From Dehalococcoidia bacterium (lineage in GTDB: Bacteria; Chloroflexota; Dehalococcoidia; Lucifugimonadales; UBA2962), in contig OZ244723.1 in NCBI GenBank assembly GCA_965219325.1, positions 1,130,158-1,194,157 of the forward strand: a DNA stretch of 64,000 nucleotides, written 5' to 3'. Shown here one piece after another: positions 23,894 through 49,398 of the stretch. How positions within the stretch are numbered: the stretch's first letter is position 1; every line of letters begins with the position of its first letter. A program made the position numbers and the translations under genes. Under the pieces are notes generated by a model that was given only the letters and a program-made list of their open reading frames with translations, made no database searches and had not been told where the DNA came from.

Positions 23894-23911
23894 GAGAAGG
23901 AGAACCCCAGA

Positions 23912-28833: not shown

Positions 28834-30479
28834 GCACCGGGAGCCGGTCCCGGGCGATGCTGGCGCTGGCCGAGATGCCCCTGATCGATTGCCCGTCGCT
28901 GGCCGCAGTGTGCGGCATGGCTGAGCGCTCTGCCTACGAGGCCGTCGCCGGTCTCGAGCGGATCGGACTCGCCGCGCACGTCCCGCACACCACGAGCCTC
29001 CTCAACCCGACGCGGCGGTTCCATCTCACCGGCGCGGGGCTGAGGCTGCTGGCGCTGGAGCGGGATATTGCGCTTGACGAGGTGCTCGGGGCATACCCGG
29101 TCTCCCGCGCGTGGCGGCGGATCCTGCTCGAGAGACTCGATGCCGTGGCCGTCATATACAGGCTGGCGGCCGCGATCGCCGGGGAGCAGGGGCCGGTGGG
29201 GCTGCGCTGGTACAGGGCGCTCCCGCTGGACGCCGCGATCGTGCTCCCCGGAGGCCGGCCGGTCGGGGTGGTCAGGCAGGGACCGACCGCAGATCGGACG
29301 GGGTTTGCCAGGCGGCTGTGGAGGCTGCGCGAATTGCCGCGCATGAGTGGGGTACTGGTGCTCGCCTCCGACGAGATGCGTCTGCGCCACTCGATCAGGC
29401 TGCTCGCCGGCACGCCCCTGGTCTCCCTGGTCGCCCTGGAGAGGGACGCCGCAGGGGTGGGGCCGGGTGACCCGGTCTGGAAGCTGCCCTCGACCGCGGC
29501 CGCCATGGACCTTCGGCGCATGCTCTCTCACATCGAGAGGGCCGGTTCGCTTCCGGAGGAGAGGAGACTCTCACGGGCCTCCATGCCCGGGGACATCGCG
29601 GCCGACGGACCCGGGGATGACTTTCCCGCCTGCGTCCTGCCCGCGCTCCTTGGGTCCGCCGAGAAGCGCACGCTCGACATCCTGTTCGACTGGCCCTGGA
29701 TGGCGCAGAAGGACATGGCGGGTCTGCTGGGCGTCTCGGCCGCGCGCGCGTCCCAGCTCACGGCGTCCCTGGAGAGATTCGGCCTGGTCTCCCGCGCTCC
29801 CGACGCGGGTCGCCGCCTGGCGCTCACCGACCGTGGCCTCGGTCTGCTGGTCCGCAGGGACCGCGCGTCCTGGGGCGTTGCCAGGGGACGCTGGAGCATC
29901 TCGCCCGTCGACCCGGGCGAGCCGTTCTCCTGGCGCAATGTGTCCGGGGCCAGGAGCCGGCAGCTGCTCAGGAACCTTGCGCACACGGCAGCGGTACACG
30001 GCTTCATGGCCGCGCTGGCCGGACAGGCCCGGTCGTCCGGCTGGGAGGTGGTGCAGGTCGACCCGCCCACCCGGGCGTCGAGGTACTTCTGGCATGGGGG
30101 AACCCTGCGGTCCGTGCATCCCGACGCGTTCGGCATCCTGCGCAGGGGAGCCGAGACGTGGCCGTTCTTCCTGGAGTGGGAGCGGCGTGCGGTGAGGCCG
30201 GTCACGATGGCGGCGCGGCTCGCGCCCTATGTCCGTTACTACTCGACCCGCCGGCCCATCGACGACCACGGCGTGCGTCCCGCAGTCATGATCGTGTTCG
30301 ACGACGACCTGGCCGCTGCGGGCTTCCTCAGGGTGGCCCGCCGGGAGATCGAGGGGGCCGGGGTTTCGGTGCCCATCCTTGTTTCCGACAGGAGCACTGT
30401 GGACAGACTGGGGCCACTGGGTCCGGCGTGGCGCAAGGTTGGGGAGTGGTCATCCTGCCACGCTCTCCCCGCTGTTTAG
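28830..30479 (+). CDS. Replic_Relax (replication-relaxation) family protein with N-terminal wHTH repeats; putative relaxase
   Basis: ATGA overlap with the coupling-protein gene. C-terminal block ..LAHTAAVHGF...HPDAFGIL......WPFFLEWERR.. is as I know it for the replication-relaxation family. Confidence 0.7.
   Translation: MSTGSRSRAMLALAEMPLIDCPSLAAVCGMAERSAYEAVAGLERIGLAAHVPHTTSLLNPTRRFHLTGAGLRLLALERDIALDEVLGAYPVSRAWRRILLERLDAVAVIYRLAAAIAGEQGPVGLRWYRALPLDAAIVLPGGRPVGVVRQGPTADRTGFARRLWRLRELPRMSGVLVLASDEMRLRHSIRLLAGTPLVSLVALERDAAGVGPGDPVWKLPSTAAAMDLRRMLSHIERAGSLPEERRLSRASMPGDIAADGPGDDFPACVLPALLGSAEKRTLDILFDWPWMAQKDMAGLLGVSAARASQLTASLERFGLVSRAPDAGRRLALTDRGLGLLVRRDRASWGVARGRWSISPVDPGEPFSWRNVSGARSRQLLRNLAHTAAVHGFMAALAGQARSSGWEVVQVDPPTRASRYFWHGGTLRSVHPDAFGILRRGAETWPFFLEWERRAVRPVTMAARLAPYVRYYSTRRPIDDHGVRPAVMIVFDDDLAAAGFLRVARREIEGAGVSVPILVSDRSTVDRLGPLGPAWRKVGEWSSCHALPAV
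29962..30479 (+). repeat. direct repeat copy 1 (3' end of the relaxase gene); diverged copy at 49399..49915
   Basis: Encoded peptides are about 90% identical (..GWEVVQVDPPTRASRYFWHGG.. versus ..GWDVVQVDPPTRASRYFRHGG..). Confidence 0.8.
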
Positions 30480-30980: not shown

Positions 30981-31226
30981 CTAGTCGGTGAACAGGTGGG
31001 CGAGGCCCAGGGGTCTCGCCAGGGCCACCAGCGCCATCATGTTCCGCATGCTGGGGCGAGCCCGTCCCTTCCTCCAGCGCCGCAGCGTCTCGTGGTGGAC
31101 GTCGAGACGACGGGCGATCTCCGCCCACGACAGGCCCGACTCCTCCTTGAACCGCTCCAGCCGCTCCGGGAAGTCGTGGGGGACCTGGTAGGTAACTCTG
31201 CTGTGATAAATGCGCTGTCGCGGCAT
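30981..31226 (-). CDS. small HTH protein (81 aa), member of a five-copy family in this window
   Basis: MPRQRIYHS..VPHDFPERLERFKEESGLSWAEIARRLDVHHETLRRWRKG...LGLAHLF. Confidence 0.65.
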   Translation of the reverse strand: MPRQRIYHSRVTYQVPHDFPERLERFKEESGLSWAEIARRLDVHHETLRRWRKGRARPSMRNMMALVALARPLGLAHLFTD

Positions 31227-32306
31227 CGGTCCTTCCGGAAGACGGCTGCAAGCTCCCTCCTACGGGGATGTCCGGGGCCGTCCGATATCCCCAGGCAGGA
31301 CGGTATGCGGAACGCAAGCTCACGCGGTCAGCCCGTCCCGGAGTCCTGTGGGAGGCCGCCGCTCTGCTTGTCGGAGGGCTGGGGCGGCCTCCCCCAGCTT
31401 CATCCATGTGTGCGGGCTTTCTTGTTGCCCTTCCTGCGGGCGGGGTCCGCGCGGGTACGCGTACACCCGCGCGGACCTTCCTCTCCTCCCGACGCCACAT
31501 GCCATCAGGAATTATCCGGCGGATCGGGCCCTTCCACGCATGGCCCCTCACCGAGTTCGTTGACCGCCGCCACACCGAATTTGACGGGTCCCACATAGAC
31601 GATCTTGAAGTATTTGAAACCCGTCGGGGTGCCGTCGGGGTGCTCTGGTGGCGTGGTGGATCCAGGGTGCTCCACCTCGTATTCGTCCAGCAGGTAGCCG
31701 CCGCAGCCCTCGCTGGCTGAGCCGTAGATGCGGAACTCCGTGATCCATTGCGCGCCGGTTCCGGTCTCGTCCGGCGCGTCCCACGACACGATTTGCCCAC
31801 CAATGCCGCTGACGGGCGAGTAGGACACAGACACATTGCGGACCGCGCCCGGGATCTCCGAGGGGCCCAGACCACCGGGCGGAACGGCAACTGCCAGCAA
31901 AATTTCACGCACCGACAGCGTGTAGGTGCCTGGGTCCAAGCCCGCTACTTCCAGGTGGTAGATGCCGGTCGCGGTCGCCGTGTAGGTCAGTCGGCTGTTA
32001 AGTCCCTCGCCGCCGTCGTCGTCCTCACTGATGTAGTGGGAGACGTTGAAGGAGTCGCCGTAGAGCGCCAGGATCGGGTCCGCCTGGGAGCCGCGGCCGG
32101 TGTCCGCGCCCTCCAGGTCGAACCGGTATCGCTTGCCCGCCTCCAGATTGACACGGAACCCGTCCAAATCCTCGCCAGGGTCGATGTTGCCCGTGGCCGA
32201 GGCCCCGACCTCGACCCGGCCGGTGGTGGTGGTGTCTCTGGGAAAGTCCGTGTCGGCCTCCGAGGCGCCGTTCGCGCCCAGCACGATCACCGACAGCGTG
32301 TAGGTG
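31197..32306. repeat. about 1.1-kb near-identical direct repeat, copy 1 (HTH 5' end, 279-bp spacer, last 267 codons of the giant gene)
   Basis: Matches 40309..41418 at a constant offset of 9112 nt, with only a handful of mismatches read by eye. Confidence 0.85.
31444..31477 (-). terminator. 12-bp GC hairpin GGTCCGCGCGGG / CCCGCGCGGACC 30 nt downstream of the giant gene 1 stop; identical copy at 40556..40589
   Basis: Perfect inverted repeat read directly. There is no clear U-tract, so terminator function is uncertain. Confidence 0.4.
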
Positions 32307-35300
32307 CCGGTCATGGTGGCTGTGCCGGCCGCAGCTATGTAGTAGGTCCCGTCCGCCGTGGGCGTGTAGATAACCCGGCCGTTTTTGCCCACACCGCCAT
32401 CGTTGCTCCTCGCATCGGATATCGCCTGTCCTCCCGCATCATACAACCCCCAAAGAAACGGATCCGCCAAGTTGCCTCGGCCGGTATCCGCCCCCTCCAC
32501 GTCGAACTGGTATCGCTTGCCCTTCTTCAGCTCGACCGCGAACCAGTCGACGTCGGCGTCCCTATCGACGTTCCCCGTGACCGAGCCGCCCACCTCGACC
32601 TCGCCGGTGGTGGTGGTGTCGGCGGGCAGGTCTTCGCCGTCGGGCTCCGAGACGTTGGTGGGCAGGTCCGTGGCGCCCTCGGCGACCCCTTGCGCGGGGA
32701 CGGCCGCGCCGCTGACGCTGAACTTCGTATACTCGCCGCTTTCTCCCGACCAATCGCCTAGGTCGGTGTGACTACGGGTTAGCCGCGCACCGGCGACGCT
32801 CCATCCCGTCGAATCGTCGTCAGCGGACCCTGAAGCCGTTACGCGTAGGGTGAGATGCGCCCGAGCGCCGCTGTAGGACTGAACCACAAAGTACGTCGTG
32901 CCGGGGTCCAGTACCGTGCCCCCTGGGGCGTTGAACGTGTTGACGCCGGTGGCCCAGGTATCCGTGGAATGCGTCAGCGTGGCGACCGGGGCGTCGGGCG
33001 TCGGTGGGGAGTCGCTGGTCGCGGACCACAGCGAGACCGTGACGTCGGCCGGGGTTTTGGGGACCGTGTCCACATCCAAGCTGATGCTGGCCAGGAAGTA
33101 TCCGTAGCGATCTGAGCCGGTGGTGAACCCCTGGGCGTTCTCAAAATCGCCAACGATTATTGCAAAATTCAGGTTGTTGGCTTGCCCGAGGTTGGTCAGG
33201 AGGTCGGTGACGGAATCCGGGACATTGCCGGAATCGTCCGGGGGATCGTCGGGCGTCATCTCCGCCGCCCGCGTCACGGTCACCGTGTAGGTCTGCGTCG
33301 AGGTGTCGTCCTCGGCCGTCACCTTCACCTTGATGACGGTGTCGCCCACCTCCAGCGCCACCTGGAAGTCGTCCTCCATGTCGTCCGCGTCGTCGAGCTC
33401 GTTGTCGTCCGTGTCTAGAATCTCGACCGTCGCGCTGGCGTGGTTCGTGGTCGGCGTCACCGTCACCTCGTCGACGCTGTTGGCGACCGACGCCGTGTAG
33501 ATGGCCGTGCCCGAGGCGAAGGCCGGGCTCAGCGTCACCCCCATGCCCAGCGACAGCCCGCTCAGCGTCGCGTCCGTCGAGAGCGCCGTCGCGTCGTCGT
33601 CCTCGATGGTTCCCGTCGCGGTCGGGTCCGTCTCCAGCTTCGCGTTCGACGACGGGCTCGACAGCGTCACCGTGAAGGTCTCGTCGCCCTCCTCGGTGGC
33701 GTCGTTCACCACCGGCACCTCGAACGTTCCCGTCGTGTCGCCGATCGCGACGGTCACCGTCCCCGTCTTCGTCGCCCCGAGGTCCGCCGCGACCGCCGTG
33801 TCGCCGGCCTCGATCGACGCCGTCCAGGTCGCCGTCACGGCCGTCGCGGCCGCTTCCGACAGCGTCACCGTGAACTCCACTTCCCCATCGTTCTCGGCGT
33901 CCGAGGCATCCGCGACGCTCAGCGTCCGCGGGCGCACACGAATCGTGACGGTGTCCCCCGCAGACCAGGTCAGGCCCGACAGACCCCAAGAGTAGAGGCC
34001 GGTGGTGCTTTTCGTGGCACCGCTGAACTCGAATGGGGTGGCGGCGCCGTCGACCGTGAGCAGCAGGCCCGCCTTGTCATCGTCGGTGAGATCGGCGGTG
34101 AGCAAGACGTACAGGGTGCCCGTGGGGGTGGTCCCAGTTGGGACTTGGACGTAAGCGCCTTGGATCGTGTAGTCGTTGTCCCCGACCGAGAACACCGTTT
34201 CGTCAGGGTTGCCGGCAAGGCTGCCCGCGCTGAGGCCAGCTCCATCAGCAAAACCGTGTCCGACAAGCGCGTCGGCGGGGCTGGTCTTGATCTCTGCCAC
34301 CGTCACCGCGCCGCACCAGATGTCGCCGGTGTTCAGCGTGCACGGCGGCGGCTGCGTGATTTCACGCACCGACAGCGTGTAGGTGCCAGTAGTGGGGGCC
34401 GCGGTCTCGACAACCAGGTAGTAGGCGCCGGCCGCGGTCGGCGTGAAGACCAACTGGCTGTTTAGGTTCGCGGTGCTGATGTCGTCGTCTTCAGCAAGTT
34501 TGTTACTTCCAGACGCGTCGAAGATCTGTAGGAACGGGTCTCCCAGGGAGCCGCGGCCGGTCGGCGAACCCTCCAGGTCGAACTGGTAGGTCTTGCCGGC
34601 CTCCAGATCGACGCGGAACCAGTCTTTATCCGATGTGCTGGCGATGTTGCCCGTGGCCGAGGCCCCGACCTCGACGCGGCCAGAGGTCGTGTTGTCGGCG
34701 GGAAAGTCCGTGTCGGCCTCCGAGGCGCCGTTCGCGCCCAGCACGATCACCGACACCGTGTAGGTGCCGGTATCACTGGTTGCTGAGTCCGCGACCACGT
34801 AGTAGGTGCCGGTCGCCGTGGGCGTGTTGATAATCCGGGCGTTCTTGCCCACGCCCGCGTCATCGTTACCACTAATCAGGCTAGTCGCGTAGAGGCTTGC
34901 GGCCGGGTCCGGCAAGGTGCCGCGCCCGGTATCCGCCCCCTCCACGTCGAACTGGTATCTCGTGCCCGCCTCCAGTTCGACCTTGAACCAGTCTTTGTCC
35001 GTGCTAGGTTTGATGGCGCCCGTGACCGAGCCGCCCACCTCGACCTCGCCGGTGGTGGTGTTGTCGTTGGGAAAGTCGTCGCGCGTCACGGTCACCGTGT
35101 AGGTCTGCGTCGCGGTGCTGTCCTCGGCCGTCACCTTCACCTTGATGACGGTGTCGCCCACCGACAGCGCCACCTGGAAGTCGTCCTCCATGTCGTCCGC
35201 GTCGTCGAGCTCGTTGTCGTCCGTGTCCAGAATCTCGACCGTCGCGCTGGCGTGGTTCGTCGTCGGCGTCACCGTCACCTCGTCGACGCTGTTGGCGACC

Positions 35301-38300
35301 GACGCCGTGTAGGTGACCGTGCCCGAGGCGAAGGCCGGGCTCAGCGTCACCCCCGTGCCCAGCGACAGCCCGCTCAGCGTCGTTGGGCCGGTCGAGAGAG
35401 GTATCGCTTCGGTGCGCTGTTTGCCGTAAACGAGCATCTTCACCACCCAATTCTCGCCACTCCAGTTTGTTCCGTCCCTGGACTTCTGTGACTCATTGGC
35501 CACAAAGATGTTACTGTTCCCATCCTGGTCGTTGCTTGCTGTGTTCCGGAGTCGTATCCAACCGCCACTGAGACGTTGGATTACGATCGCATATCTCCCC
35601 TGTGGTCTGAGCGTCGTTCCTTCCGGCGCCGTGAATGCGTTGTCATGGCCTTCCCTGAACGCCGGTGGATCGCGAAAGTCGAACAGTTTTTCGTCGGGAA
35701 CCGGATCGCCGCCTCCTTCTTGTTTTCCGGTGTAAAGCGACACGATGATTTCGTCCGGGCTGTCCGGTATACCTGAGTCGGCGGATGCAATGTATTCAAG
35801 GGCCAATGCAACGCTGTGCAGTTTGAAGCCGATGAAGCTGTCAGCCCCCTGGATGACATTAAAACTCTGAGCCCACCAGTTATAGTTGTCTTCACCCACC
35901 TTAAAGTTGTCCTGATCACTCTCACTGGTGGTGTAGGTAAGCCGGTCGAGATCGTAGCCGTGGATCGTGAAGACAGGAATCCGCGTCGGGGTTTGCGTGA
36001 CGGAGTCCGGCCACGGGTCGTCGGGGTTGCTTAGATCCTGGTATCGCACGGCTGAGTTAAGGATCCACCAGTTGCTGTCAACGCGGCTTTGACCGTCCGC
36101 GTCAGTGTTCGTTATGTAATATTCCGTGCTGCCCGAGCCATCTGATTCGATGACCACGAAGTAGACCCTATCGTCGTGCAGGTAAAAGGGCTCGGGCGGA
36201 GTGAAGGTGTTGATTTGGTTGTTACCGTCTTTGAATGCCGATGGATTATCGAACTCGAAATATTTATTATTCGGTCGCCAATCATCATCTCCATCATCAT
36301 TACCACCTGGTCTATACCCGTCCCAAAGAGACACCGTAACGGGAACGACCGGCTTGGCGCTAAACATCAAATCGAGCGCGGTGAGCGCGTAGCCGCCAGT
36401 GTCATCGCCAATCTGAAAACCGACAGCGAAGCTGATTGATCCAACGGTGGTCTGCTCGAAGGTAGTGGTTTGCGTAGTGTTGCCCACCATTGCCGCCGCC
36501 GCCGTCGCCCGGTTGTTGATCGTGCCCGTCGCGGTGGTGTCCGTGGTCAGCGTCGCGTTATTCGGGTTTGAAATCGTCAGCGTGAAGGTCTCGGCGCTCT
36601 CGCTCGCGTCGTCCTCCGTCGTCTGGACCTCGATCGTCCCGGTGGCGGTATTGTCGGCCGCCGCGATGGTCAGCGTGCCGCTCTTCGTCGTGAAGTCCAC
36701 GCCCGAGGTGGCGTCGTCTCCGGTCGCCACCGACGTCGCGTAGTCCACCATCACGTCGCGGCCGCTCACCGCCGACAGCGTCACCACGAACTCCACCGCG
36801 TCACCCTCGGTCGCCGCCGCGTTGGCCACCGTCACGGTCGGCGTCGGGTCGTCGTCCTCGATGGTTCCCTTCGCCGTCGGGTCCGTCTCCAGCTTGGCGT
36901 TCGACGACGGGCTCGACAGCGTCACCGTGAAGGTCTCGTCGCCCTCGTCGGTGGCGTCGTTCACCACCGGCACCGTAAACGTTTCCGTCGTGTCGCCGAT
37001 CGCGACGGTCACCGTCCCCGTCTTCATCGACCCGAGGTCCGCCGCGGCCGCCGTGTCGCCGGTCTTGATCGAGGCCGTCCAGGTCGCCGTCACCTCCTCT
37101 GTGGCCGCTTCCGACAGCGTCACCGTGAATTCCACTTCCCCATCGTTCTCGGCGTCCGAGGCATCCGCGACGCTCAGCGTCCGCGGGCGCCGCACACGAA
37201 TCGTGACGGTGTCCCCCGCAGACCAGCTCAGGCCCGACAGACCCCAAGAGTAGAGGCCGGTGGTGCCTTTCGTGGCACCGCTGAATGCGAACGTGGTGGC
37301 GGCGCCGTCGACCGTGAGCACCAGGCCCGCCTTGTCATCGTCGGTGAGGTCGGCGCTGAGCAAGACGTACAGGGTGCCCGTGAGGGTGGTCCCAGTTGGG
37401 ACTTGGATATAAGCGGCACTGATCGTGTAGTCGTTGTCCCCGACCGAGAACATCGTGGCGTCAGGGTAGCCGGCAAGGCCGCCCGCGCTGAGGCCAGCTC
37501 CATCAGCAAAACCGTGTCCGACAAGCATGTCGGCGCTAGACTTGAGCTCTCCCACCGTCACCACGCCGCACCAGATGTCTCCGGTGTTCAGCGTGCATGG
37601 CGGCGTCGTGATGTCACGCACCGACAGCGTGTAGGTGCCCGTCCCCCCGGTGACCCCGCTAACCGCTACCAGGTAGTAGGTGCCGGCCGCGGTCGGCGTG
37701 TAGACGGTCTGGCTGTCGTAGATGTCGTTAGAGGGGTCGACATCGTCATTCTCGGTGCCGTCAATCTCGGTGCCGGATGAGTCGCGGATATTGAGCAGAT
37801 AAGGGTTTTCCAAGGTGCCGCCGCCGCCACCAATGCCCTTCAGGTCGATCTGGTAGGTCTTGCCCGCCTCCAGATCGACGCGGAACCAGTCATAGTCATT
37901 GGCGATGCCGATGTTGCCCGTGGCCGATGCGCCGACCTCGACGCGGCCAGAGGTCGTGTTGTCGGCGGGAAAGTCCGTGTCGGCCTCCGAGGCGCCGTTC
38001 GCGCCCAGGAGGATCACCGACAGCGTGTAGGTGCCTGTAAGATTGTCATTGATTTCGGTCACCACTGGGTAGAAGTCGCCGGACGCGGCCGGGGTGTAGA
38101 TCATCCGGGCGTTGGCGCCCACGCCGCTGTTGTCGTCGCCCTGTTGGCCGTTGTCACCCTGAAGCTGGCTCCCGATATTGTCGTAGAGGCCCAGGTGCGG
38201 GTCCGCCAGGGTGCCCCGGCCGGTGTCCGCGCCCTCCAGATCCAACTGGTATCGCGTGCCCGCCTCCAGTTCCACTTTGAACCGGTCGTAGTCGCCGACC

Positions 38301-40249
38301 GTCCCGATGTTGCCCGTTACTGTGCCGCCCACCTCGACCTCGCCGGTGGTGGTGTTGTCGTTGGGAAAGTCGTCGCGCGTCACGGTCACCGTGTAGGTCT
38401 GCGTCGAGGTGCCGTCCGCGGCCGTCACCTTCACCTTGATGACGGTGTCGCCCACCGACAGCGCCACCTGGAAGTCGGCCGCATTGTCGTCCGCGTCCGC
38501 GAGCGCATTGCCGTCCGCGTCCTGAATTTCGGAATCGGCGCTGGCGTGGTTCTCCGTCACCGTCACTGTCACCTCGTCGACGCTGTTGGCGACCGACGCC
38601 GTGTAGGTGACCGTGCCCGAGGCGAAGGCCGGGCTCAGCGTCACCCCCGGGCCCAGCGACAGCGCGCTCAGCGTCGCGTCCGTCGAGAGCATGGGCGTGA
38701 TGTCACGCACCGACAGCGTGTAGGTGCCCGTGAGGTTGGCAGCACCAGTGGTGGCCCTGAGGTAGTGGGCGCCGGCCGAGGCCGCAGTGTAGACCATCTG
38801 GCTGTTGAGGTCCGTGCCGCTGTCGTCGTCTACGAGAAGGAAGGTTGCGGACCCGTCATAGAGCGACAGGAACGGGTCTACCAAGGTGCCGCGGCCGGAA
38901 TCCGCCCCTTCCAGGTCGAACTGGTAGGTCTTGCCCGCCTCCAGATCGACGCGGAAATAGTCTTTATCCGATGTGCTGGCGATGTTGCCCGTGGCCGAGG
39001 CCCCGACGTCGACGCGGCCGGTGGTGGTGGCGGTGGCGGGGAAGTCCGTGTCGGCCTCCGAGACGCCGTTTGCGCCCAGCACGATCACCGACAGCGTGTA
39101 GGTGCCGGTCGTGGTGGCTGTGCCGGACGCAGCTATGTAGTAGGTGCCGTCCGCCGTGGGCGTGTAGATAACGCGGCCGTTTTTGCCCACACCGCCATCG
39201 TTGCTCCTCGCACCGGATATCGCCTGTCCTCCCGCATCATACAACCCCCAAAGAAACGGATCCGCCAAGTTGCCGCGGCCGGTATCCGCCCCCTCCACGT
39301 CGAACTGGTATCTCGTGTCCGCCTCCAACTCGACGCGGAACCAGTCGACGTCGGCGTCCCTATCGACGTTCCCCGTGACCGAGCCACCGACGTCCACCTC
39401 GCCGGTGGTGGCGGTGCCTTCGGGCAGGTCTTCGCCGTCGCCCTCCGAGACGTTCGCCCGCCCGCCGGGACCGGGCGGCGTGGCATGGCCGGGCGCTCCG
39501 CCGCCGTCCTCCCCGTCCTGGTCGTCGCCTTCGACGGCCTCCGGCGCGGTCGGCGTGTCGATGTGGAACCAGCGGGAGCGCGGGCTCACCCCGTGCTCGT
39601 TGATGGCCTTGATGCGGTAGGTGTAGGTGGTCTCAGCAACCACTGTGTCGTCGGTATAGGTGGTGGCGGCGGTGCCCGTGTCCGCGACCAATTCTCTGAA
39701 CTCGCCCTTTCTGTCGGTATCCCGGTTACGGCGCAGGATCACGTAGCCGGTGATGGTGTCGTCGCCCGGCTCGTCCCAGGTGAGGACCACCTGGTCGTGG
39801 GTCGCCGTGGCGTCCAGGCCCCTGGGCTTGTCGGGCCGCTCGGGGGCCGCCGGTATGTCGATGTGGAACCAGCGGGAGCGCTCGCTCACCCCGTGCTCGT
39901 TGGTCGCCTTGATGCGGTAGGTGTAGGTAGTATTGGCCTTTACGCTGTCGTCGGTATAGGTGGTCGCCGCCGTCCCAGTGTCCGCCACGAGCTCACTGAA
40001 CTCGCCCCCGGTATCGTTCACGCGGACGCGCCGCAGGATCACGTAGCCGGTGATGGTGTCGTCGCCCGGGTCGTCCCAGGTCAGCACCACCGAGTCGTGG
40101 GTCGCCGTGGCGGAAAGGCCCGTGGGCTTGTCGGGCGCCGAGCCCTCCTGGGCCTGCACCGTGGAGAACAGCAGGGCCATCGCCAGGGCCAGGGCCGCTA
40201 TGGCGGCGAACAGGATGGGGAATCGTCGTCTATCGGTGCGAGTCATCAT
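31505..40249 (-). CDS. giant secreted repeat protein (2914 aa): signal peptide, 2 FN3-like domains, 8 PPC-type repeats in 4 pairs, 3 cadherin-like beta-sandwich repeats, Calx-beta-like repeats, unknown domains, C-terminal FN3-like domain
   Basis: N-terminus MMTRTDRRRFPILFAAIAALALAMALLF..VQAQ. FN3-like P.GL.A.A....V.L.WD.P...ITGY...R. PPC-type D.DWFRV.LEAG..YQFD.EG....GTL.DP.L.LYD......TYTLSV. Calx-like LSVADASDAENDGEVEFTVTLS. Confidence 0.9.
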   Translation of the reverse strand: MMTRTDRRRFPILFAAIAALALAMALLFSTVQAQEGSAPDKPTGLSATATHDSVVLTWDDPGDDTITGYVILRRVRVNDTGGEFSELVADTGTAATTYTDDSVKANTTYTYRIKATNEHGVSERSRWFHIDIPAAPERPDKPRGLDATATHDQVVLTWDEPGDDTITGYVILRRNRDTDRKGEFRELVADTGTAATTYTDDTVVAETTYTYRIKAINEHGVSPRSRWFHIDTPTAPEAVEGDDQDGEDGGGAPGHATPPGPGGRANVSEGDGEDLPEGTATTGEVDVGGSVTGNVDRDADVDWFRVELEADTRYQFDVEGADTGRGNLADPFLWGLYDAGGQAISGARSNDGGVGKNGRVIYTPTADGTYYIAASGTATTTGTYTLSVIVLGANGVSEADTDFPATATTTGRVDVGASATGNIASTSDKDYFRVDLEAGKTYQFDLEGADSGRGTLVDPFLSLYDGSATFLLVDDDSGTDLNSQMVYTAASAGAHYLRATTGAANLTGTYTLSVRDITPMLSTDATLSALSLGPGVTLSPAFASGTVTYTASVANSVDEVTVTVTENHASADSEIQDADGNALADADDNAADFQVALSVGDTVIKVKVTAADGTSTQTYTVTVTRDDFPNDNTTTGEVEVGGTVTGNIGTVGDYDRFKVELEAGTRYQLDLEGADTGRGTLADPHLGLYDNIGSQLQGDNGQQGDDNSGVGANARMIYTPAASGDFYPVVTEINDNLTGTYTLSVILLGANGASEADTDFPADNTTSGRVEVGASATGNIGIANDYDWFRVDLEAGKTYQIDLKGIGGGGGTLENPYLLNIRDSSGTEIDGTENDDVDPSNDIYDSQTVYTPTAAGTYYLVAVSGVTGGTGTYTLSVRDITTPPCTLNTGDIWCGVVTVGELKSSADMLVGHGFADGAGLSAGGLAGYPDATMFSVGDNDYTISAAYIQVPTGTTLTGTLYVLLSADLTDDDKAGLVLTVDGAATTFAFSGATKGTTGLYSWGLSGLSWSAGDTVTIRVRRPRTLSVADASDAENDGEVEFTVTLSEAATEEVTATWTASIKTGDTAAAADLGSMKTGTVTVAIGDTTETFTVPVVNDATDEGDETFTVTLSSPSSNAKLETDPTAKGTIEDDDPTPTVTVANAAATEGDAVEFVVTLSAVSGRDVMVDYATSVATGDDATSGVDFTTKSGTLTIAAADNTATGTIEVQTTEDDASESAETFTLTISNPNNATLTTDTTATGTINNRATAAAAMVGNTTQTTTFEQTTVGSISFAVGFQIGDDTGGYALTALDLMFSAKPVVPVTVSLWDGYRPGGNDDGDDDWRPNNKYFEFDNPSAFKDGNNQINTFTPPEPFYLHDDRVYFVVIESDGSGSTEYYITNTDADGQSRVDSNWWILNSAVRYQDLSNPDDPWPDSVTQTPTRIPVFTIHGYDLDRLTYTTSESDQDNFKVGEDNYNWWAQSFNVIQGADSFIGFKLHSVALALEYIASADSGIPDSPDEIIVSLYTGKQEGGGDPVPDEKLFDFRDPPAFREGHDNAFTAPEGTTLRPQGRYAIVIQRLSGGWIRLRNTASNDQDGNSNIFVANESQKSRDGTNWSGENWVVKMLVYGKQRTEAIPLSTGPTTLSGLSLGTGVTLSPAFASGTVTYTASVANSVDEVTVTPTTNHASATVEILDTDDNELDDADDMEDDFQVALSVGDTVIKVKVTAEDSTATQTYTVTVTRDDFPNDNTTTGEVEVGGSVTGAIKPSTDKDWFKVELEAGTRYQFDVEGADTGRGTLPDPAASLYATSLISGNDDAGVGKNARIINTPTATGTYYVVADSATSDTGTYTVSVIVLGANGASEADTDFPADNTTSGRVEVGASATGNIASTSDKDWFRVDLEAGKTYQFDLEGSPTGRGSLGDPFLQIFDASGSNKLAEDDDISTANLNSQLVFTPTAAGAYYLVVETAAPTTGTYTLSVREITQPPPCTLNTGDIWCGAVTVAEIKTSPADALVGHGFADGAGLSAGSLAGNPDETVFSVGDNDYTIQGAYVQVPTGTTPTGTLYVLLTADLTDDDKAGLLLTVDGAATPFEFSGATKSTTGLYSWGLSGLTWSAGDTVTIRVRPRTLSVADASDAENDGEVEFTVTLSEAAATAVTATWTASIEAGDTAVAADLGATKTGTVTVAIGDTTGTFEVPVVNDATEEGDETFTVTLSSPSSNAKLETDPTATGTIEDDDATALSTDATLSGLSLGMGVTLSPAFASGTAIYTASVANSVDEVTVTPTTNHASATVEILDTDDNELDDADDMEDDFQVALEVGDTVIKVKVTAEDDTSTQTYTVTVTRAAEMTPDDPPDDSGNVPDSVTDLLTNLGQANNLNFAIIVGDFENAQGFTTGSDRYGYFLASISLDVDTVPKTPADVTVSLWSATSDSPPTPDAPVATLTHSTDTWATGVNTFNAPGGTVLDPGTTYFVVQSYSGARAHLTLRVTASGSADDDSTGWSVAGARLTRSHTDLGDWSGESGEYTKFSVSGAAVPAQGVAEGATDLPTNVSEPDGEDLPADTTTTGEVEVGGSVTGNVDRDADVDWFAVELKKGKRYQFDVEGADTGRGNLADPFLWGLYDAGGQAISDARSNDGGVGKNGRVIYTPTADGTYYIAAAGTATMTGTYTLSVIVLGANGASEADTDFPRDTTTTGRVEVGASATGNIDPGEDLDGFRVNLEAGKRYRFDLEGADTGRGSQADPILALYGDSFNVSHYISEDDDGGEGLNSRLTYTATATGIYHLEVAGLDPGTYTLSVREILLAVAVPPGGLGPSEIPGAVRNVSVSYSPVSGIGGQIVSWDAPDETGTGAQWITEFRIYGSASEGCGGYLLDEYEVEHPGSTTPPEHPDGTPTGFKYFKIVYVGPVKFGVAAVNELGEGPCVEGPDPPDNS

Positions 40250-40338
40250 GGTTCCTCCTTGAACCGCACCAGCCGCTCAGGAAAGTCGGCTGGGAAGCCA
40301 GGGGGTCTTCTGCTGTGATAAATGCGCTGTCGCGGCAT
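40246..40338 (-). pseudogene. 30-codon 5' fragment of the small HTH gene, fused to and overlapping the giant gene 1 start
   Basis: MPRQRIYHSRRPPGFPADFPERLVRFKEEP*. Its AAGGAGGAA codons double as the RBS of the ATG at 40249. Confidence 0.7.
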
Positions 40339-41418
40339 CGGTCCTTCCGGAAGACGGCTGCAAGCTCCCTCCTACGGGGATGTCCGGGGCCGTCCGATAT
40401 CCCCAGGCAGGACGGTATGCGGAACGCAAGCTCACGCGGTCAGCCCGTCCCGGAGTCCTGTGGGAGGCCGCCGCTCTGCTTGTCGGAGGGCTGGGGCGGC
40501 CTCCCCCAGCTTTATCCATGTGTGCGGGCTTTCTTGTTGCCCTTCCTGCGGGCGGGGTCCGCGCGGGTACGCGTACACCCGCGCGGACCTTCCTCTCCTC
40601 CCGACGCCACATGCCATCAGGAATTATCCGGCGGATCGGGCCCTTCCACGCATGGCCCCTCACCGAGTTCGTTGACCGCCGCCACACCGAATTTGACGGG
40701 TCCCACATAGACGATCTTGAAGTATTTGAAACCCGTCGGGGTGCCGTCGGGGTGCTCTGGTGGCGTGGTGGATCCAGGGTGCTCCACCTCGTATTCGTCC
40801 AGCAGGTAGCCGCCGCAGCCCTCGCTGGCTGAGCCGTAGATGCGGAACTCCGTGATCCATTGCGCGCCGGTTCCGGTCTCGTCCGGCGCGTCCCACGACA
40901 CGATTTGCCCACCAATGCCGCTGACGGGCGAGTAGGACACAGACACATTGCGGACCGCGCCCGGGATCTCCGAGGGGCCCAGACCACCGGGCGGAACGGC
41001 AACTGCCAGCAAAATTTCACGCACCGACAGCGTGTAGGTGCCTGGGTCCAAGCCCGCTACTTCCAGGTGGTAGATGCCGGTCGCGGTCGCTGTGTAGGTC
41101 AGTCGGCTGTTAAGTCCCTCGCCGCCGTCGTCGTCCTCACTGATGTAGTCGGAGACGTTGAAGGAGTCGCCGTAGAGCGCCAGGATCGGGTCCGCCTGGG
41201 AGCCGCGGCCGGTGTCCGCGCCCTCCAGGTCGAACCGGTATCGCTTGCCCGCCTCCAGATCGACACGGAACCCGTCCAAATCCTCGCCAGGGTCGATGTT
41301 GCCCGTGGCCGAGGCCCCGACCTCGACCCGGCCGGTGGTGGTGGTGTCTCTGGGAAAGTCCGTGTCGGCCTCCGAGGCGCCGTTCGCGCCCAGCACGATC
41401 ACCGACAGCGTGTAGGTG
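40309..41418. repeat. about 1.1-kb near-identical direct repeat, copy 2
   Basis: See 31197..32306. Confidence 0.85.
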
Positions 41419-44400
41419 CCCGTCGTGCTGTCTGCGCCGGCCACAGCTATGTAGTAGGTGCCTTCCGCGTCGGGCGTGTTGATGACCCGGCCGTTCTTCC
41501 CCACACCGCCGTCGTTACTCCTCGCACCGGAGACCGCCTGTCCTCCCGCATCCTGCAACCCCCAAAGATGCGGATCCGCCAAGTTGCCTCGGCCGGTATC
41601 CGCCCCCTCCACGTCGAACTGGTATCGCTTGCCCTTCTTCAGCTCGACCGCGAACCAGTCGACGTCGAGAGCTGGGGCGATTTCGCCCGTGACCGAACCG
41701 CCGACCTCAACTCTACCGGTGGTGGTGATGCCTTCGGGCAGGTCTTCGCCGTCGGGCTCCGAGACGTTGGTGGAATCGGCTGGCGGGTCGGCGGAATCGT
41801 CGGGCGGCGGCGTGATGTCGCGCACCGACAGCGTGTAGGTGCCGGTGTCGGTTTCATCAAAATCTGCCACACGTAGGTAGTACGTGCCAGCCGTGGTCGG
41901 AGTGAATATCCCCCGGCTGTTCGCACCAATACCGCTGTTGACATCATCCAGAAGGTTGTCCTCGGACTCGTCGTAGAGTGTTAGCGCCGGGTCCGCCAGG
42001 GTACCGCGGCCGGTCGGCGCCCCCTCCAGGTCGATCTGGTAGCGCGTGCCCGCCTCCAGGACGACGCGGAAATAGTCTCGGTCGGCGAAGGAGCCGATGT
42101 TGCCCGTGACCGAGGCCCCGACGTCGACCCGGCCGGTGGTGGCGGTGGTGGCGGGCAGGTCCGTGTCGGCCTCCGAGACGCCGTTCGCGCCCAGCACGAT
42201 CACCGACAGCGTGTAGGTGCCTGTCACGCCGTTCGAGGAGGCGACTACGTAGTGAGAGCCGTCCGCGGGCGCCGTGAAGATCCTCCGGGCGTTGTTCCCT
42301 ATGCCGCTGTCAAGCGCGTCGGTGACTACATTGCCCAACGCATCGCGCATCCTGCTAAGAACCGGGTCTGTCAGGGTGCCCCGGTTGGTGTCCGCGCCCT
42401 CCAGGTCGATCTGGTATCGCTTGTCCTTCTTCAGATCGACGCGGAACCAGTCAATGTCGAAGACGCTGTCCATGTTGCCCGTGACCGAGCCGCCGACGTC
42501 GACCTGGCCGGTGGTGGTGTTGTCGGAGGGAAAGTCGTCGGGCGTCGTCGACCCCGACAGACGGACCGTGACCGTGGTCGTCGACGACCAGTCCAGGCCC
42601 GTATTCGCCCAAGAGTAGAGGCCGGTGCTCAATCTACTGGCATCGCTGAGCGCGCGGTCGGTAGTGACGCCGTCGATCTTGAAAACCAGGTTCTCCTTGT
42701 CATCGTCGGAGAGATCGGCGGTGAGCAATAAGAACAGGGAGCCATCGTTGTTGCCCCCTGGGGCTCCGACATAAAGGCCCCTGATCGTGTAGTCGTTGTC
42801 CCCGACCGAGAACATCGTGTCGCCGGGGTTGCCGACAAGACCGCCCGCGCTGAGACTACTGGTATCCGCAAACCCGTGTGAGACAAGCACGTCGGCGCTA
42901 GTCTTGAGCTCTCCCACCGTCACCACGCCGCACCAGAGGTCGCCGATGTTCAGCGTGCACGGTGGCGGGATCTCACGCACCGACAGCGTGTAGGTGCCCG
43001 TCCCCCCGGTCTCTGTCGTACTCGGTTCCAAGGTGTAGGTGCCGGTCGTGGTCGGCGTGTAGACTATCTGACTGTTTTTGTTCGTGCTGCTGATGTTCTC
43101 GTTGAACCCCACGACCGTTACGAATCGGTAGAGTTTTAGGTACGGATTCTCCAGGGTGCCGCGGCCGTTATGCGATCCTTCCAGGTCGAACTGGTAGGTC
43201 TTGCCCGCCTCCAGAGCGACATTGAACAAGTCCGTATCGCCGTTGAACCCGATCGTCCCCGTGACCGAGGCCCCGACGTCGACAGTGCTAACGTTGGTGT
43301 TGGAAAAGTCCGTGTCGGCCTCCGAGGCGCCGTTCGCGCCCAGCACGATCACCGACAGCGTGTAGGTGCCCGTCACGCCGTTCGAGGCGGCGACTACGTA
43401 GTGAGTGCCGTCCGCGGTCGCCGTGAAGATCGTCCGGGCGTTGTTCCCCACGCCGCTGTCATCGTTCTGCGTGCCCGTGATCGTATTGCCCCCCGCATCA
43501 CGCACTGCGTTGATAGTCGGGTCCGACACTGTGCCGCGGCCGGTAGGCGCACCCTCCAGGTCGATCTGGTATCGCGTGGTCTCCTCCAGCTCGACGAGGA
43601 ACCAGTCCGCGTCGCCGACGGACTCGATGTTGCCCGTGACCGAGCCGCCGATGTCGACCTTGCCGGTGGTGGTGGTGCCGGCGGGAAAGTCGTCGGGCGG
43701 CGACAGACGAACCGTAACCGTGGTCGTCGCAGACCAGTCCAGGCCCGACAGACCCCAAGAGTAGAGGCCGGTGGTGCCTTTCGTGGCGCCGCTGAACGCG
43801 AACGTGAGGGTGGTGTCGTCGACCGTGAGCACCAGGCCCGCCTTGTCATCCTCGCTGAGATCGGCGCTGAGCAAGACGTACAGGGTGCCCGTGACGGTGG
43901 ACCCAGTTGGGACTTGGATATAAGCGGCACTGATCGTGTAGTCGTTGTCCCCGACCGAGAACATCGTGTCGTCAGGGTAGCCGGCAAGGCTGCCCGCGCT
44001 GAGGCCAGCTCCATCAGCAAAACCGTGTGCGACAAGCACGTCGGCGTTAGTCTTGACCTCTGCCACCGTCACCACGCCGCACCAGACGTCGCCCGTGTTC
44101 AGCGTACACGGCGGCGGCGTGATGTCACGCACCGACAGCGTGTAGGTGCCGGCCGCGCTATTCGAGGCTGCCACCAGGTAGTAGACGCCGGCCGCGGTCG
44201 GCGTGAAGGTTATCTGGCTTTCGTAGATGTCGTTGTCCGGATCGACGTCGTCATTCTCGGTGCCGCTAATCGCGTTGCCGGATGAGTTGCGGATATTGAG
44301 CAGATAAGGGTCTTCCAAGGTGCCGCCGCCGCTATCTTCGCCCTTCTGGTCGATCTGGTAGGTCTTGCCCGCCTCCAGATCGACCTTGAACCAGTCCGCG

Positions 44401-45662
44401 TCGGTATCGGGGTCGATGTTGCCCGTGACCGAGCCGCCCACGTCCACCTCGCCGATGGTGGCGGTGGTGGCGGGAAAGTCCGTGTCGGCCTCCGAGGCGC
44501 CGTTCGCGCCCAGCAGGATCACCGACAGCGTGTAGGTGCCGGTATCTGACCCATTGGCATTCTGTGCCCGCACGTAGTAGGCGCCGGCCGCGGTCGGCGT
44601 GTAAATCCGCCGGGCGTTTTTGCCCACGCCCTCGTCGTTGCTCAAAGAACCGACAACTGCGTTGCTATAGTAGAGAGCCATCCTCGGGTCCGGTAGGGTA
44701 CCGCGGCTGGTATCCGCACCTTCAAGATCGATCTGGTATCTCGTGCCCGCCTCCAGCACGACCTTGAACCAGTCCCCGTCCGTCCCGGTTCCGATGTTGC
44801 CCGTGACCGAGCCGCCGACGTCCACCTCGCCGGTGGTGGTGTCGTCGGTCGGCAGGTCTTCGCCGTCGGGCTCGGAGACGTTGGCCCGCTTGCCGGGACC
44901 GCCGGGCGCGCCGTCGTCGTCCTCCCCGTCCTGGTCGTCGCCTTCGACGGCCTCCGGCGCGGCCGGCGTGTCGATGTGGAACCAGCGGGAGCGCTCGCTC
45001 ACACCGTGCTCGTTGATCGCCTTGATGCGGTAGGTGTAGGTAGTATTGGCCTGTACGCTGTCGTCGGTGTAGGTGGTCGCCGCCGCCCCCGTGTCCGCCA
45101 CCAGCACACTGAACTCGCCCCCGGTATCGTTCACGCGGACGCGCCGCAGGATGACGTAGCCGGTGATGGTGTCGTCGTCAGGGTCGTCCCAGGTGAGGAC
45201 CACCTGGTCGTGGGTCGCCGTGGCGTCCAGGCCCGTGGGCTTGTCGGGCCGCTCGGGGGCCGCCGGAATGTCGATGTGGGACCAGCGCGAGCGTTCGCTC
45301 ACCCCGTGCTCGTTGATCGCCTTGATGCGGTAGGTGTAGGTAGTGTTGGCCTTTACGGTAGCGTCGGTGTAGGTGGTCGCCGCTGTGCCCGTGTCCGCCA
45401 CGAGCTCACTGAACTCGCCCCCGGTATTGTTCACGCGCACGCGCCGCAGGATGACGTAGCCGGTGATGCTGGCGTCGCCCGGGTCGTCCCAGGTGAGGAC
45501 CACCTGGTCGTGGGTCGCCGTGGCGGAGAGGCCCGTGGGCTTGTCGGGCACCGAGCCCTCCTGGGCCTGGACCGGAGAGAACAGCAGGGTCATCGCCAGG
45601 GCCAGCGCCGCTATGGCGGCAATCAGGATGGGGAATCGTCGTCTATCGGTGCGAGTCATCAT
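40617..45662 (-). CDS. giant secreted repeat protein (1681 aa): signal peptide, 2 FN3-like domains, 8 PPC-type repeats in 4 pairs, two copies of the CTLNxGDxWCG domain, C-terminal FN3-like domain
   Basis: The first roughly 270 aa and last roughly 270 aa are highly similar or near-identical to giant protein 1. It has the same RBS context, AAGGAGGAACCATGATG. Confidence 0.9.
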   Translation of the reverse strand: MMTRTDRRRFPILIAAIAALALAMTLLFSPVQAQEGSVPDKPTGLSATATHDQVVLTWDDPGDASITGYVILRRVRVNNTGGEFSELVADTGTAATTYTDATVKANTTYTYRIKAINEHGVSERSRWSHIDIPAAPERPDKPTGLDATATHDQVVLTWDDPDDDTITGYVILRRVRVNDTGGEFSVLVADTGAAATTYTDDSVQANTTYTYRIKAINEHGVSERSRWFHIDTPAAPEAVEGDDQDGEDDDGAPGGPGKRANVSEPDGEDLPTDDTTTGEVDVGGSVTGNIGTGTDGDWFKVVLEAGTRYQIDLEGADTSRGTLPDPRMALYYSNAVVGSLSNDEGVGKNARRIYTPTAAGAYYVRAQNANGSDTGTYTLSVILLGANGASEADTDFPATTATIGEVDVGGSVTGNIDPDTDADWFKVDLEAGKTYQIDQKGEDSGGGTLEDPYLLNIRNSSGNAISGTENDDVDPDNDIYESQITFTPTAAGVYYLVAASNSAAGTYTLSVRDITPPPCTLNTGDVWCGVVTVAEVKTNADVLVAHGFADGAGLSAGSLAGYPDDTMFSVGDNDYTISAAYIQVPTGSTVTGTLYVLLSADLSEDDKAGLVLTVDDTTLTFAFSGATKGTTGLYSWGLSGLDWSATTTVTVRLSPPDDFPAGTTTTGKVDIGGSVTGNIESVGDADWFLVELEETTRYQIDLEGAPTGRGTVSDPTINAVRDAGGNTITGTQNDDSGVGNNARTIFTATADGTHYVVAASNGVTGTYTLSVIVLGANGASEADTDFSNTNVSTVDVGASVTGTIGFNGDTDLFNVALEAGKTYQFDLEGSHNGRGTLENPYLKLYRFVTVVGFNENISSTNKNSQIVYTPTTTGTYTLEPSTTETGGTGTYTLSVREIPPPCTLNIGDLWCGVVTVGELKTSADVLVSHGFADTSSLSAGGLVGNPGDTMFSVGDNDYTIRGLYVGAPGGNNDGSLFLLLTADLSDDDKENLVFKIDGVTTDRALSDASRLSTGLYSWANTGLDWSSTTTVTVRLSGSTTPDDFPSDNTTTGQVDVGGSVTGNMDSVFDIDWFRVDLKKDKRYQIDLEGADTNRGTLTDPVLSRMRDALGNVVTDALDSGIGNNARRIFTAPADGSHYVVASSNGVTGTYTLSVIVLGANGVSEADTDLPATTATTGRVDVGASVTGNIGSFADRDYFRVVLEAGTRYQIDLEGAPTGRGTLADPALTLYDESEDNLLDDVNSGIGANSRGIFTPTTAGTYYLRVADFDETDTGTYTLSVRDITPPPDDSADPPADSTNVSEPDGEDLPEGITTTGRVEVGGSVTGEIAPALDVDWFAVELKKGKRYQFDVEGADTGRGNLADPHLWGLQDAGGQAVSGARSNDGGVGKNGRVINTPDAEGTYYIAVAGADSTTGTYTLSVIVLGANGASEADTDFPRDTTTTGRVEVGASATGNIDPGEDLDGFRVDLEAGKRYRFDLEGADTGRGSQADPILALYGDSFNVSDYISEDDDGGEGLNSRLTYTATATGIYHLEVAGLDPGTYTLSVREILLAVAVPPGGLGPSEIPGAVRNVSVSYSPVSGIGGQIVSWDAPDETGTGAQWITEFRIYGSASEGCGGYLLDEYEVEHPGSTTPPEHPDGTPTGFKYFKIVYVGPVKFGVAAVNELGEGPCVEGPDPPDNS

Positions 45663-45923: not shown

Positions 45924-45936
45924 GGGGGGGGGGGGG
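45924..45936. repeat. homopolymeric G13 (C13 on the minus strand) tract in the divergent intergenic region
   Basis: Read directly. Lies 262 nt upstream of the giant gene 2 ATG and 324 nt upstream of the kinase-regulator ATG. Confidence 0.9.
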
Positions 45937-49390: not shown

Positions 49391-49398
49391 AGCCGCCA

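Follow-up and report, generated by a model that had tools for sequence, protein, structure and literature searches.

In the 64,000-nucleotide stretch of Dehalococcoidia DNA that was analysed here (the window; contig OZ244723.1), two giant genes lie next to each other on the minus strand: gene 1 (g1; 31505-40249, 2914 amino acids) and gene 2 (g2; 40617-45662, 1681 amino acids). We favour, with a probability of about 0.62, the reading that they are paralogues of a modular gene family that is borne by an integrative and conjugative element (ICE), and that they encode giant, acidic, exported, adhesin-like proteins that have been diversified by recombination. The proteins would share a conserved frame, consisting of an N-terminus with a signal sequence and a titin-like pair of FN3 domains, and a C-terminus with the last pair of PPC domains and a C-terminal domain (CTD). 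Within that frame the inner beta-sandwich cassettes, which are PPC pairs, cadherin-like, Calx-beta and choice-of-anchor-R domains and a domain that we call 'CTLN', would be gained, lost, duplicated and exchanged. Exported by the Sec pathway to the cell surface or the extracellular space, the proteins could act as Ca2+-dependent adhesins to host matrix or to other cells, and the shuffling of cassettes, together with hypervariable loops in the PPC domains, could diversify what they bind.

Two giant genes with a common frame

The open reading frame (ORF) list agrees with an initial annotation of the window in giving two adjacent minus-strand genes of these lengths, and the common ribosome-binding and start context that it had noticed is identical in the two genes (cAAGGAGGAAccATGATGACTCGC). 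The first 270 residues or so, which it had called highly alike, have 233 identical positions in a 275-column alignment, and the DNA that encodes them is 87-98% identical per 60-nt interval, with a dip at 39613-39732. The domain orders and the repeated parts of g1 are listed here; S denotes the signal, F FN3, a and b a PPC pair, C cadherin-like, X CTLN, K Calx-beta, R choice-of-anchor-R and T the CTD.

31505-40249, minus strand: g1, S-FF-ab-C-ab-X-KK-RR-C-ab-X-K-C-R-ab-T (Pfam, NCBIfam, and hidden Markov models (HMMs) made from the window's own repeats)
40617-45662, minus strand: g2, S-FF-ab-X-ab-X-ab-ab-T (Pfam PPC and fn3, HMMs from the window's repeats)
35354-36481, in g1: two choice-of-anchor-R domains, forming a low-G+C pair (NCBIfam NF041539)
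32663-33196, in g1: third choice-of-anchor-R copy (NCBIfam NF041539 and the window's HMMs)
33584-35382, minus strand: g1 segmental duplication, copy 1, with Calx, CTLN, a PPC pair and cadherin-like (BLAST)
36839-38676, minus strand: g1 segmental duplication, copy 2 (BLAST)

Pfam places two fn3 domains in both genes, and three Cadherin-like and three Calx-beta domains in g1 only; g1 also has three choice-of-anchor-R domains by NCBIfam (NF041539). Seven stretches in each gene match the PPC model of Pfam, and the HMMs made from the window's repeats find exactly eight PPC domains in four A/B pairs and two CTLN domains per gene, which is the count that the initial annotation had given. Its list of additions peculiar to g1 stands for the three cadherin-like repeats, the Calx-beta repeats and the low-G+C pair, but the third choice-of-anchor-R copy had been overlooked. 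Whole-protein scores are above the curated cut-offs (given in brackets) for every family: in g1, Cadherin-like PF12733 scores 135 bits (24.2), PPC PF04151 112 (25.9), fn3 PF00041 71 (25), Calx-beta PF03160 48 (27) and choice_anch_R NF041539 128 (30), and in g2 PPC scores 157 bits and fn3 74, which supports a secreted repeat-domain architecture. Part of g1 is itself repeated. The duplication of about 1.1 kb that had been proposed there is real but larger than stated: 33584-35382 aligns with 36839-38676 at 84.4% identity over 1852 nt, and the repeated unit is cadherin-PPC pair-CTLN-Calx (C-ab-X-K). A second internal match joins 33270-33596 to 35082-35411 (93.6%, BLAST).

Both proteins are large, rich in threonine and glycine and all-beta, with an acidic composition (15% D+E, 5-6% K+R). 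Each has a single hydrophobic segment, at residues ~8-34 and after the basic stretch RTDRRR, that would serve as a signal peptide for Sec export. No hydrophobic 19-mer occurs outside residues 8-34, and neither protein has an LPXTG motif, an RTX repeat (GGxGxD or Pfam) or a C-terminal membrane segment. One N-terminal signal-like segment, no other membrane segment and profile matches above the cut-offs are as expected of the secreted repeat-domain proteins that had been proposed.

The FN3 pair has its best sequence matches among solved structures in animal titin FN3 (E = 2.5e-24). As a separate observation, four related loci in Alphaproteobacteria/Paracoccaceae genomes of the same accession series (L052, L053, L055, L056) have 15-17 consecutive FN3 domains akin to this pair. 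The 16 PPC cassettes of the two genes combine a conserved framework with an indel-rich variable segment. Their profile has its best match in the Protein Data Bank (PDB) to the ColH collagen-binding domain 3jqw at a non-significant E = 0.2, and a PDB sequence search with one PPC pair gave no match; collagen binding is a lead only, the similarity being too weak for a ligand to be transferred. No Pfam model matches the CTD, and a word-indexed search recovered it from close family members only.

The same composition and fold class would suit a structural component of the cell envelope, S-layer-like or part of the bacterium's own extracellular matrix, in place of an adhesin. Cultivated Dehalococcoides lack a peptidoglycan wall and have a proteinaceous surface layer, which counts in favour of such a role. 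We give this explanation little credence: no SLH or other S-layer anchoring family was matched in Pfam or NCBIfam, and the copy number and architecture of the genes vary among close relatives and the genes lie on a mobile element, which would be unusual for a core envelope component.

That variation was read from 63 related loci (numbered with the prefix L), found in a scan of one genome per species. Most are in complete chromosomes of Dehalococcoidia metagenome-assembled genomes (MAGs), and the closest relatives, in complete or near-complete chromosomes of this kind, have 75-91% protein identity over their full length. When all loci are read with the same HMMs, the frame is constant (S-FF...ab-T, usually followed by a helix-turn-helix (HTH) gene) and the interiors are many, among them SFFFabXabXababT, SFFFabXababT, SFFabT, SFFCCXababT and SFFabCabXKKRRCabXabRabT. 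The first of these, with three FN3 domains, belongs to the g2 orthologues at L006, L007 and L013; some family variants end in FN3 pairs in place of T. At L007, L008, L011, L012, L017 and L018 the genes form tandem arrays, with from two to at least four members. Comparison with related genomes, a check that the initial annotation had itself put forward, has revealed variation in both copy number and cassettes. A scan of Joint Genome Institute (JGI) metagenomes found distant PPC proteins only.

The CTLN domain is matched by no Pfam or NCBIfam model. When 1.84 billion representatives were searched exhaustively with its profile, 723 proteins matched at E <= 1e-3, 104 of them at E <= 1e-30; an earlier impression that the domain is rare, gained from a word-indexed search that gave only eight fragmentary proteins, was abandoned. 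With the window-derived HMM, up to five copies are found per protein, and the partners are cadherin-like, Calx-beta, FN3, PPC, choice-of-anchor-R, LRR and SRCR domains. Among the invariant residues are C3, D9, W11, C12, W127, S128 and R136. On these profile matches CTLN is a real domain family that Pfam has yet to model. Structure prediction, which had been proposed as a check, gives a confident model from 42 sequences (predicted local distance difference test score, pLDDT, 93.5) for which Foldseek finds no neighbour in the PDB, and the predicted fold may be new; an earlier model from 12 sequences (pLDDT 74), with fold matches that were noise, was replaced by this one. At three loci (L002 and L003, 10001-10456; L004, 8796-10848) CTLN is seen as short stand-alone ORFs in an ICE-like context on low-coverage long-read contigs; these are probably frameshift fragments of larger genes.

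Duplication, conversion and mosaic alleles

The features on which the history of the pair can be read are these.

31197-32306, minus strand: block copy 1, comprising the first 10 codons of the HTH gene, the spacer, and the CTD, PPC-B and end of PPC-A of g1 (base-by-base comparison)
40309-41418, minus strand: block copy 2, with the same content at the 3' end of g2 (base-by-base comparison)
30981-31226, minus strand: 81-amino-acid Xre-type HTH gene downstream of g1 (Pfam HTH_31/HTH_3)
31227-31504, minus strand: conserved 278-nt spacer, with its duplicate at 40339-40616
40246-40338, minus strand: 30-codon HTH-gene remnant between the g2 spacer and g1, reading MPRQRIYHSRRPPGFPADFPERLVRFKEEP and then a stop codon (direct sequence reading)
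32325-32465, minus strand: 141-nt patch in the last PPC-A of g1, an ectopic conversion tract resembling the first PPC-A of g1 (39123-39263)

Near-identical ends at a constant offset of 9112 nt had been claimed for the two genes, and base by base the two blocks differ at only 4 of 1110 nt (31401, 31979, 32038 and 32149). The account of what the blocks contain holds for the shared spacer and HTH codons and needs amendment in two respects: the spacer has 278 nt, not 279, and the copy upstream of g1 is no second HTH gene but a 30-codon remnant of the 81-amino-acid one. At the same offset, identity is at the random level to the left of 31150; from 32300 to ~32650 it is 68-100% per 50-nt interval (mostly 82-100%), and it is random again beyond ~32700. 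BLAST merges the block with this flanking homology (95.7% over 1523 nt).

The HTH gene is conserved downstream of family members in the locus maps, and the spacer is 97-99% identical in seven other loci, a conservation that at least matches that of the coding parts. Starting 29 nt past the stop codon, the spacer contains a perfect 14-bp G+C hairpin (RNA fold z = -3.56), a region that may serve as a terminator or stabiliser, or else belong to the HTH gene as its promoter or leader.

At the remnant, the TGA overlaps the ATG of g1 (ccATGA), and the motif AAGGAGGA has a double identity: it encodes K-E-E in the HTH gene and is also the Shine-Dalgarno sequence of the giant gene. This dual reading is the signature of a tandem duplication by illegitimate recombination, and on the evidence of the junction we show that the array derives from such a duplication, the unit of which is the gene, its spacer and the 5' end of the HTH gene, joined at the 8-nt microhomology. 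L016, upstream of its g1-type gene, and L011, upstream of its first gene, have the same remnant junction, and the duplication is therefore older than this genome; judged from its distribution, it is ancestral to the element family and not specific to the window. A second, different HTH-remnant junction is present in L011 and L017, from which it follows that such duplications recur. The reading frame of the remnant is intact in three genomes (window, 40246-40338, minus strand; L016, about 9910-10000; L011, 7392-7481), and its TGA/ATG overlap (ATGA) resembles that of a translationally coupled upstream ORF.

In a highly repetitive region, and in a sequence that apparently comes from a metagenome-assembled chromosome, an assembly artefact (repeat expansion or a chimeric join) might be suspected behind the tandem arrangement or behind the near-identical block. 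We regard this as very improbable. The copies have unique flanks, four fixed differences and a specific junction; L016 and L011 independently have the same junction; at least six independent assemblies contain comparable arrays; and the 1.1-kb identical block is short in comparison with the PacBio reads of comparable assemblies (PMC12586988), on the assumption that the window is such an assembly.

Informative sites were read from a six-sequence alignment, and the block was compared in 12 copies (two from the window and 10 others). In the alignment, g1 equals g2 at 31197-32306; at 32309-32323 and 32556-32700 g1 is of the L016 type and g2 of the L006 type; and at 32331-32458 g1 alone deviates, with 19 clustered private sites. 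Among the 12 block copies, the window pair differ from each other at 4 sites and from the nearest other copies at 27-31 columns, and they have three private variants in common. The combination of 4 differences against 27-31 with shared private variants points to recent homogenisation in the window's lineage, by which the 3' ends of both copies were made alike. The deviating stretch of g1 falls within the 141-nt patch, which is 97.2% identical to the first PPC-A of g1 and 86.5% identical to its positional homologues in g2 and in L016; as the L016 gene is otherwise ~100% identical to g1, the patch is an ectopic, intragenic conversion tract.

Larger exchanges are seen further into g1. From 40338 to about 34350 (~6 kb) it matches L016 at 99-100% identity; beyond that the two can no longer be aligned. 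The segment 33272-34330, which is exactly a cadherin-Calx-CTLN trio, is 100% identical to L008, the second locus of the same MAG as L016. The breakpoints lie within about 15 nt of domain borders that were defined by the HMMs, and identity switches there abruptly from 100% to <50%. From these alignments g1 is shown to be a mosaic of two alleles known from other loci. Homologous recombination between cassettes that are 80-95% identical, and between alleles on different elements, would have followed the duplication and produced mosaics that break at domain borders. The homogenised block with its private variants, the patch and the mosaic are all in keeping with the gene conversion or recombination that the initial annotation had suggested.

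The annotation had also drawn attention to a sharp boundary of identity. The boundary is real, at 31197, but it does not mark the edge of the duplication: to its left the functional HTH gene of the window is an L020-type allele, the remnant keeping the common allele, and on this comparison the boundary is the breakpoint of an allele switch in the HTH gene. Decay of the HTH remnant had been considered for 31141-31196 (66% identity) and was rejected, the remnant being the common allele and the functional gene the L020-type one.

A simpler history would make the pair a decaying tandem duplicate, with ends kept alike by purifying selection and a mosaic appearance left by old divergence. The duplication junction is indeed ancestral, and the 3' block, spacer included, is 96-99% conserved in all family members. 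We think such a history quite unlikely: the non-coding spacer is conserved as much as the coding parts, the window copies are ~7-fold nearer to one another than either is to a copy elsewhere and have private variants in common, the 141-nt patch has an identifiable intragenic donor and is missing from the L016 gene, which is otherwise ~100% identical, and the abrupt switches in identity coincide with domain borders.

All strong self-matches in 30.5-46.5 kb are direct and none is inverted (BLAST), and the mechanism therefore looks like homologous recombination with unequal exchange and not like site-specific inversion. Inverted repeats of the kind found in shufflons are lacking in this interval, and the only recombinase among the ORFs scanned is a large serine recombinase at the end of the element. 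Programmed antigenic variation of the pilE/pilS, vlsE or tprK type would call for an array of silent cassettes; 30-47 kb has none, both genes are complete, and the conversion donor is, unlike that of silent-cassette systems, another cassette of the same expressed-type gene. As for a diversity-generating retroelement, no reverse transcriptase domain was found in the window ORFs scanned (a part of the total), and the mismatches between repeats have no adenine-specific bias. Polymorphic-toxin, shufflon and retroelement readings were considered and left unsupported.

The conjugative element and the spread of its cargo

The surroundings of the two genes support their being accessory cargo of an ICE of roughly 50 kb, as had been proposed from the sequence.

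6307-8700: helicase, a leading-region type gene
9239-10276: DUF6094 methyltransferase, a leading-region type gene
No coordinates given: DUF2958 gene, a leading-region type gene
11770-12273, minus strand: RadC-like JAB protein, a leading-region type gene
14318-15082, minus strand: Rad52/Rad22-family single-strand annealing protein, a leading-region type gene
20310-30479, plus strand: ICE transfer module as a whole, including a 565-amino-acid ORF (ORF565)
20310-21446: TrbL/VirB6
21598-21891: T4SS_pilin
23912-26194: VirB4/TraC-like ATPase (TraG P-loop/AAA_10/TraC)
about 26.2-28.8 kb: coupling protein (TrwB_AAD_bind/DUF87)
28830-30479: Replic_Relax relaxase
46260-48641, plus strand: hybrid sensor-regulator, GAF-PAS-HisKA-HATPase-REC-OmpR DNA-binding domain, divergent from g2 (Pfam)
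Right end of the element: PIN protein
51939-56865: ICE regulation and integration end, with ImmA-like M78 peptidase, Xre HTH genes and large serine recombinase
51.9-53.1 kb: ImmA-like M78 peptidase and Xre regulators
55252-56865, plus strand: large serine recombinase

A relaxase, a type IV coupling protein, a VirB4-family ATPase and mating-pore components, by which an ICE is recognised, are all present. The transfer genes lie on one side of the giant genes and the ImmA/Xre genes and serine recombinase on the other, which places g1 and g2 inside the element; ordinary metabolic genes follow beyond the recombinase. The same linkage recurs in at least 10 other genomes, the helicase, methyltransferase, TrbL and ORF565 genes flanking the family in at least 10 loci. 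The hybrid sensor-regulator also recurs beside family genes, with 81-93% DNA matches in L001, L022, L026, L029 and L032. A phosphotriesterase-family ORF (56826-57782, plus strand), with a Pfam match that begins only at residue 50, starts within the gene for the serine recombinase, and its 5' end may be where the element inserted; the remaining half of this target, the att sites and the left end of the ICE were not located in the window.

Several further observations concern the element. At its 3' end the relaxase gene has 519 nt that recur in direct orientation at 87.5% identity (29954-30472 and 49390-49908), and the 18.9-kb cargo (HTH-g1-g2-sensor) is bracketed by these diverged 3' ends. A 318-nt direct repeat (87.4%; 49080-49397 and 51488-51805) brackets the relaxase fragment and the PIN gene. 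These direct repeats suggest capture of a module, or accretion of two related ICEs, by homologous recombination. Transposase genes lie on both sides of the element region (DDE_3, 3749-4453, and DDE_5, 58128-59543, both on the minus strand). The divergent promoter region that g2 shares with the sensor-regulator contains a 13-nt homopolymer (45924-45936; C13 on the gene strand), some 270 nt upstream of g2. A C-run occurs at the same place in L013, with C in place of the preceding A; a pattern match counts 10 C there, and the whole run has about 12. The C13 tract is a candidate slipped-strand switch, with a comparable tract in only this one other locus. The window contains no tRNA genes or Rfam families, and promoter and terminator scans of it gave background levels only.

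Cargo and backbone have diverged at different rates. Between loci, cargo DNA is 90-99% identical and the ICE backbone genes are 75-78% identical. Copies of the family are also found in MAGs labelled Binatia (L014; 98.8% identical to the window over 726 nt) and Latescibacterota (L017 and L025; for L017, 93.7% over 5.4 kb). Family DNA that is 93-99% identical across species and across three phyla, as labelled, shows recent horizontal spread. The L014 gene has chromosomal neighbours, for alternative complex III, PQQ dehydrogenase and a Tsx-type outer-membrane channel, and the L017 gene lies beside other FN3/cadherin giants that have a clearly higher G+C content at third codon positions (GC3; 0.93-0.95 versus 0.83). 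No ICE genes were found within 10 kb of the family genes in either.

The main rival to accessory cargo is that the giant proteins belong to the conjugation machinery itself, as mating adhesins or aggregation substances comparable to PrgB of pCF10 or PilV of R64, and that shuffling alters which recipients can be reached. The tight and recurrent linkage to one ICE backbone in at least 10 genomes would be explained in this way, as would the position of the genes directly beside the relaxase with regulators flanking them, the presence of family DNA in three phyla and the element's own Rad52-type annealing protein. We consider the proposal possible, if unlikely, given that the genes of L014 and L017 have no ICE gene within 10 kb, that the cargo is far more conserved than the backbone, as fits an exchangeable accessory module, that there is neither an invertible segment nor a shufflon-type recombinase, the cassettes all being direct, and that Pfam reveals no PrgB-type domain similarity. 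It is a matter of speculation that the ICE-borne Rad52/Rad22 protein could promote recombination between diverged cassettes. A more elaborate proposal, which we hold to be rather doubtful, is that the ICE possesses a self-diversifying device for binding recipients, in which cassette recombination, possibly Rad52-aided, continually re-targets a mating or host adhesin and so allows one element with its cargo to pass between Chloroflexota, Latescibacterota and Binatia in a sponge; it would be, functionally, an analogue of the R64 shufflon that works by homologous recombination, and CTLN, with its possibly new fold, would be a part of it.

The preferred reading, of ICE-borne, exported adhesin-like proteins diversified by recombination, has a number of points to set against it. 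Surface exposure, Ca2+ binding, the ligand and the adhesin role are all predicted from sequence, and no recognised anchoring signal was found in either protein, which leaves 'cell-surface' and 'released' inseparable. The view that recombination is ongoing draws on a few recent events and not on population data. Diversifying selection on the cassettes is suggestive only: dN/dS among paralogous cassettes (Nei-Gojobori) has a value of 0.34 in FN3 and ranges over 0.6-1.45 in PPC, CTLN, cadherin-like and Calx, values that are inflated by codon bias (GC3 0.84). The phylum labels of the MAGs are those given in the database records. The habitat is probably marine sponge, which we infer from three things. 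The related MAGs include Entotheonella, Binatia and Latescibacterota. The contig names in the European Nucleotide Archive are of what we take to be metaMDBG style. Sponge metagenomes have been assembled with metaMDBG, according to a sponge genome note (PMC12586988).

Comparison with known systems

Cadherin and FN3 genes are enriched in sponge MAGs, those of Chloroflexota included, and have been transferred laterally between lineages (PMC8163846). The window's proteins have the same domain vocabulary as those sponge-symbiont proteins, their FN3 pair being nearest to animal titin FN3, and other CTLN-carrying proteins also have SRCR, LRR and Calx-beta domains. The earlier work named neither vehicles nor mechanisms. 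Unlike it, the present locus reveals a vehicle, an ICE with a complete transfer module, together with a defined frame and with recombination and amplification that can be traced base by base, and so supplies a concrete case. It offers a readable duplication junction, conversion tracts with identifiable donors, and alleles that recur at ~100% identity over kilobases elsewhere and at 93-99% in other phyla. CTLN is a widespread extracellular domain that is open to curation and structure solution. If the putative adhesins bind host matrix or recipient cells, they would provide a handle on how uncultivated symbionts attach and exchange DNA.

The Alp/Rib/alpha-C proteins of streptococci and PspA/PspC of pneumococci are mosaic repeat surface proteins that evolve by intragenic and intergenic recombination. 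The window's genes resemble them in their conserved ends, variable numbers of near-identical repeats, chimeric alleles and horizontal exchange of segments. They differ in encoding other domains, with no LPXTG or choline-binding anchor, in being much larger, and in being borne by an ICE in uncultivated Chloroflexota. With the type I secretion system (T1SS) adhesins SiiE, LapA and MpIBP they share multi-kilobase genes and acidic beta-sandwich repeats with Ca2+-binding modules of the Calx-beta or cadherin type; unlike those adhesins, they have an N-terminal signal in place of a C-terminal T1SS signal and no RTX repeats, and no T1SS genes (ABC transporter, membrane fusion protein, TolC) are found among the ORFs scanned. 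The collagen-binding s3 domains of ColG and ColH belong to the PPC superfamily. Every cassette of the window is matched by Pfam PPC, the cassettes occur as tandem pairs, and 3jqw is the best, if non-significant, profile match in the PDB; unlike ColG and ColH, the window's proteins have no protease domain and eight PPC copies each.

PilV of the R64 shufflon and PrgB of pCF10 are, like the proteins proposed here, adhesins encoded on conjugative elements, the former rearranged by recombination and the latter aggregating cells. In the window there are no inverted sfx-like repeats and no Rci-type recombinase, and homologous recombination between direct repeats is apparent in their place; a role in mating is, for these proteins, conjectural. 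Giant adhesin genes that are diversified by recombination are thus of a known kind, and what is distinct here is their carriage by an ICE and their spread across phyla.

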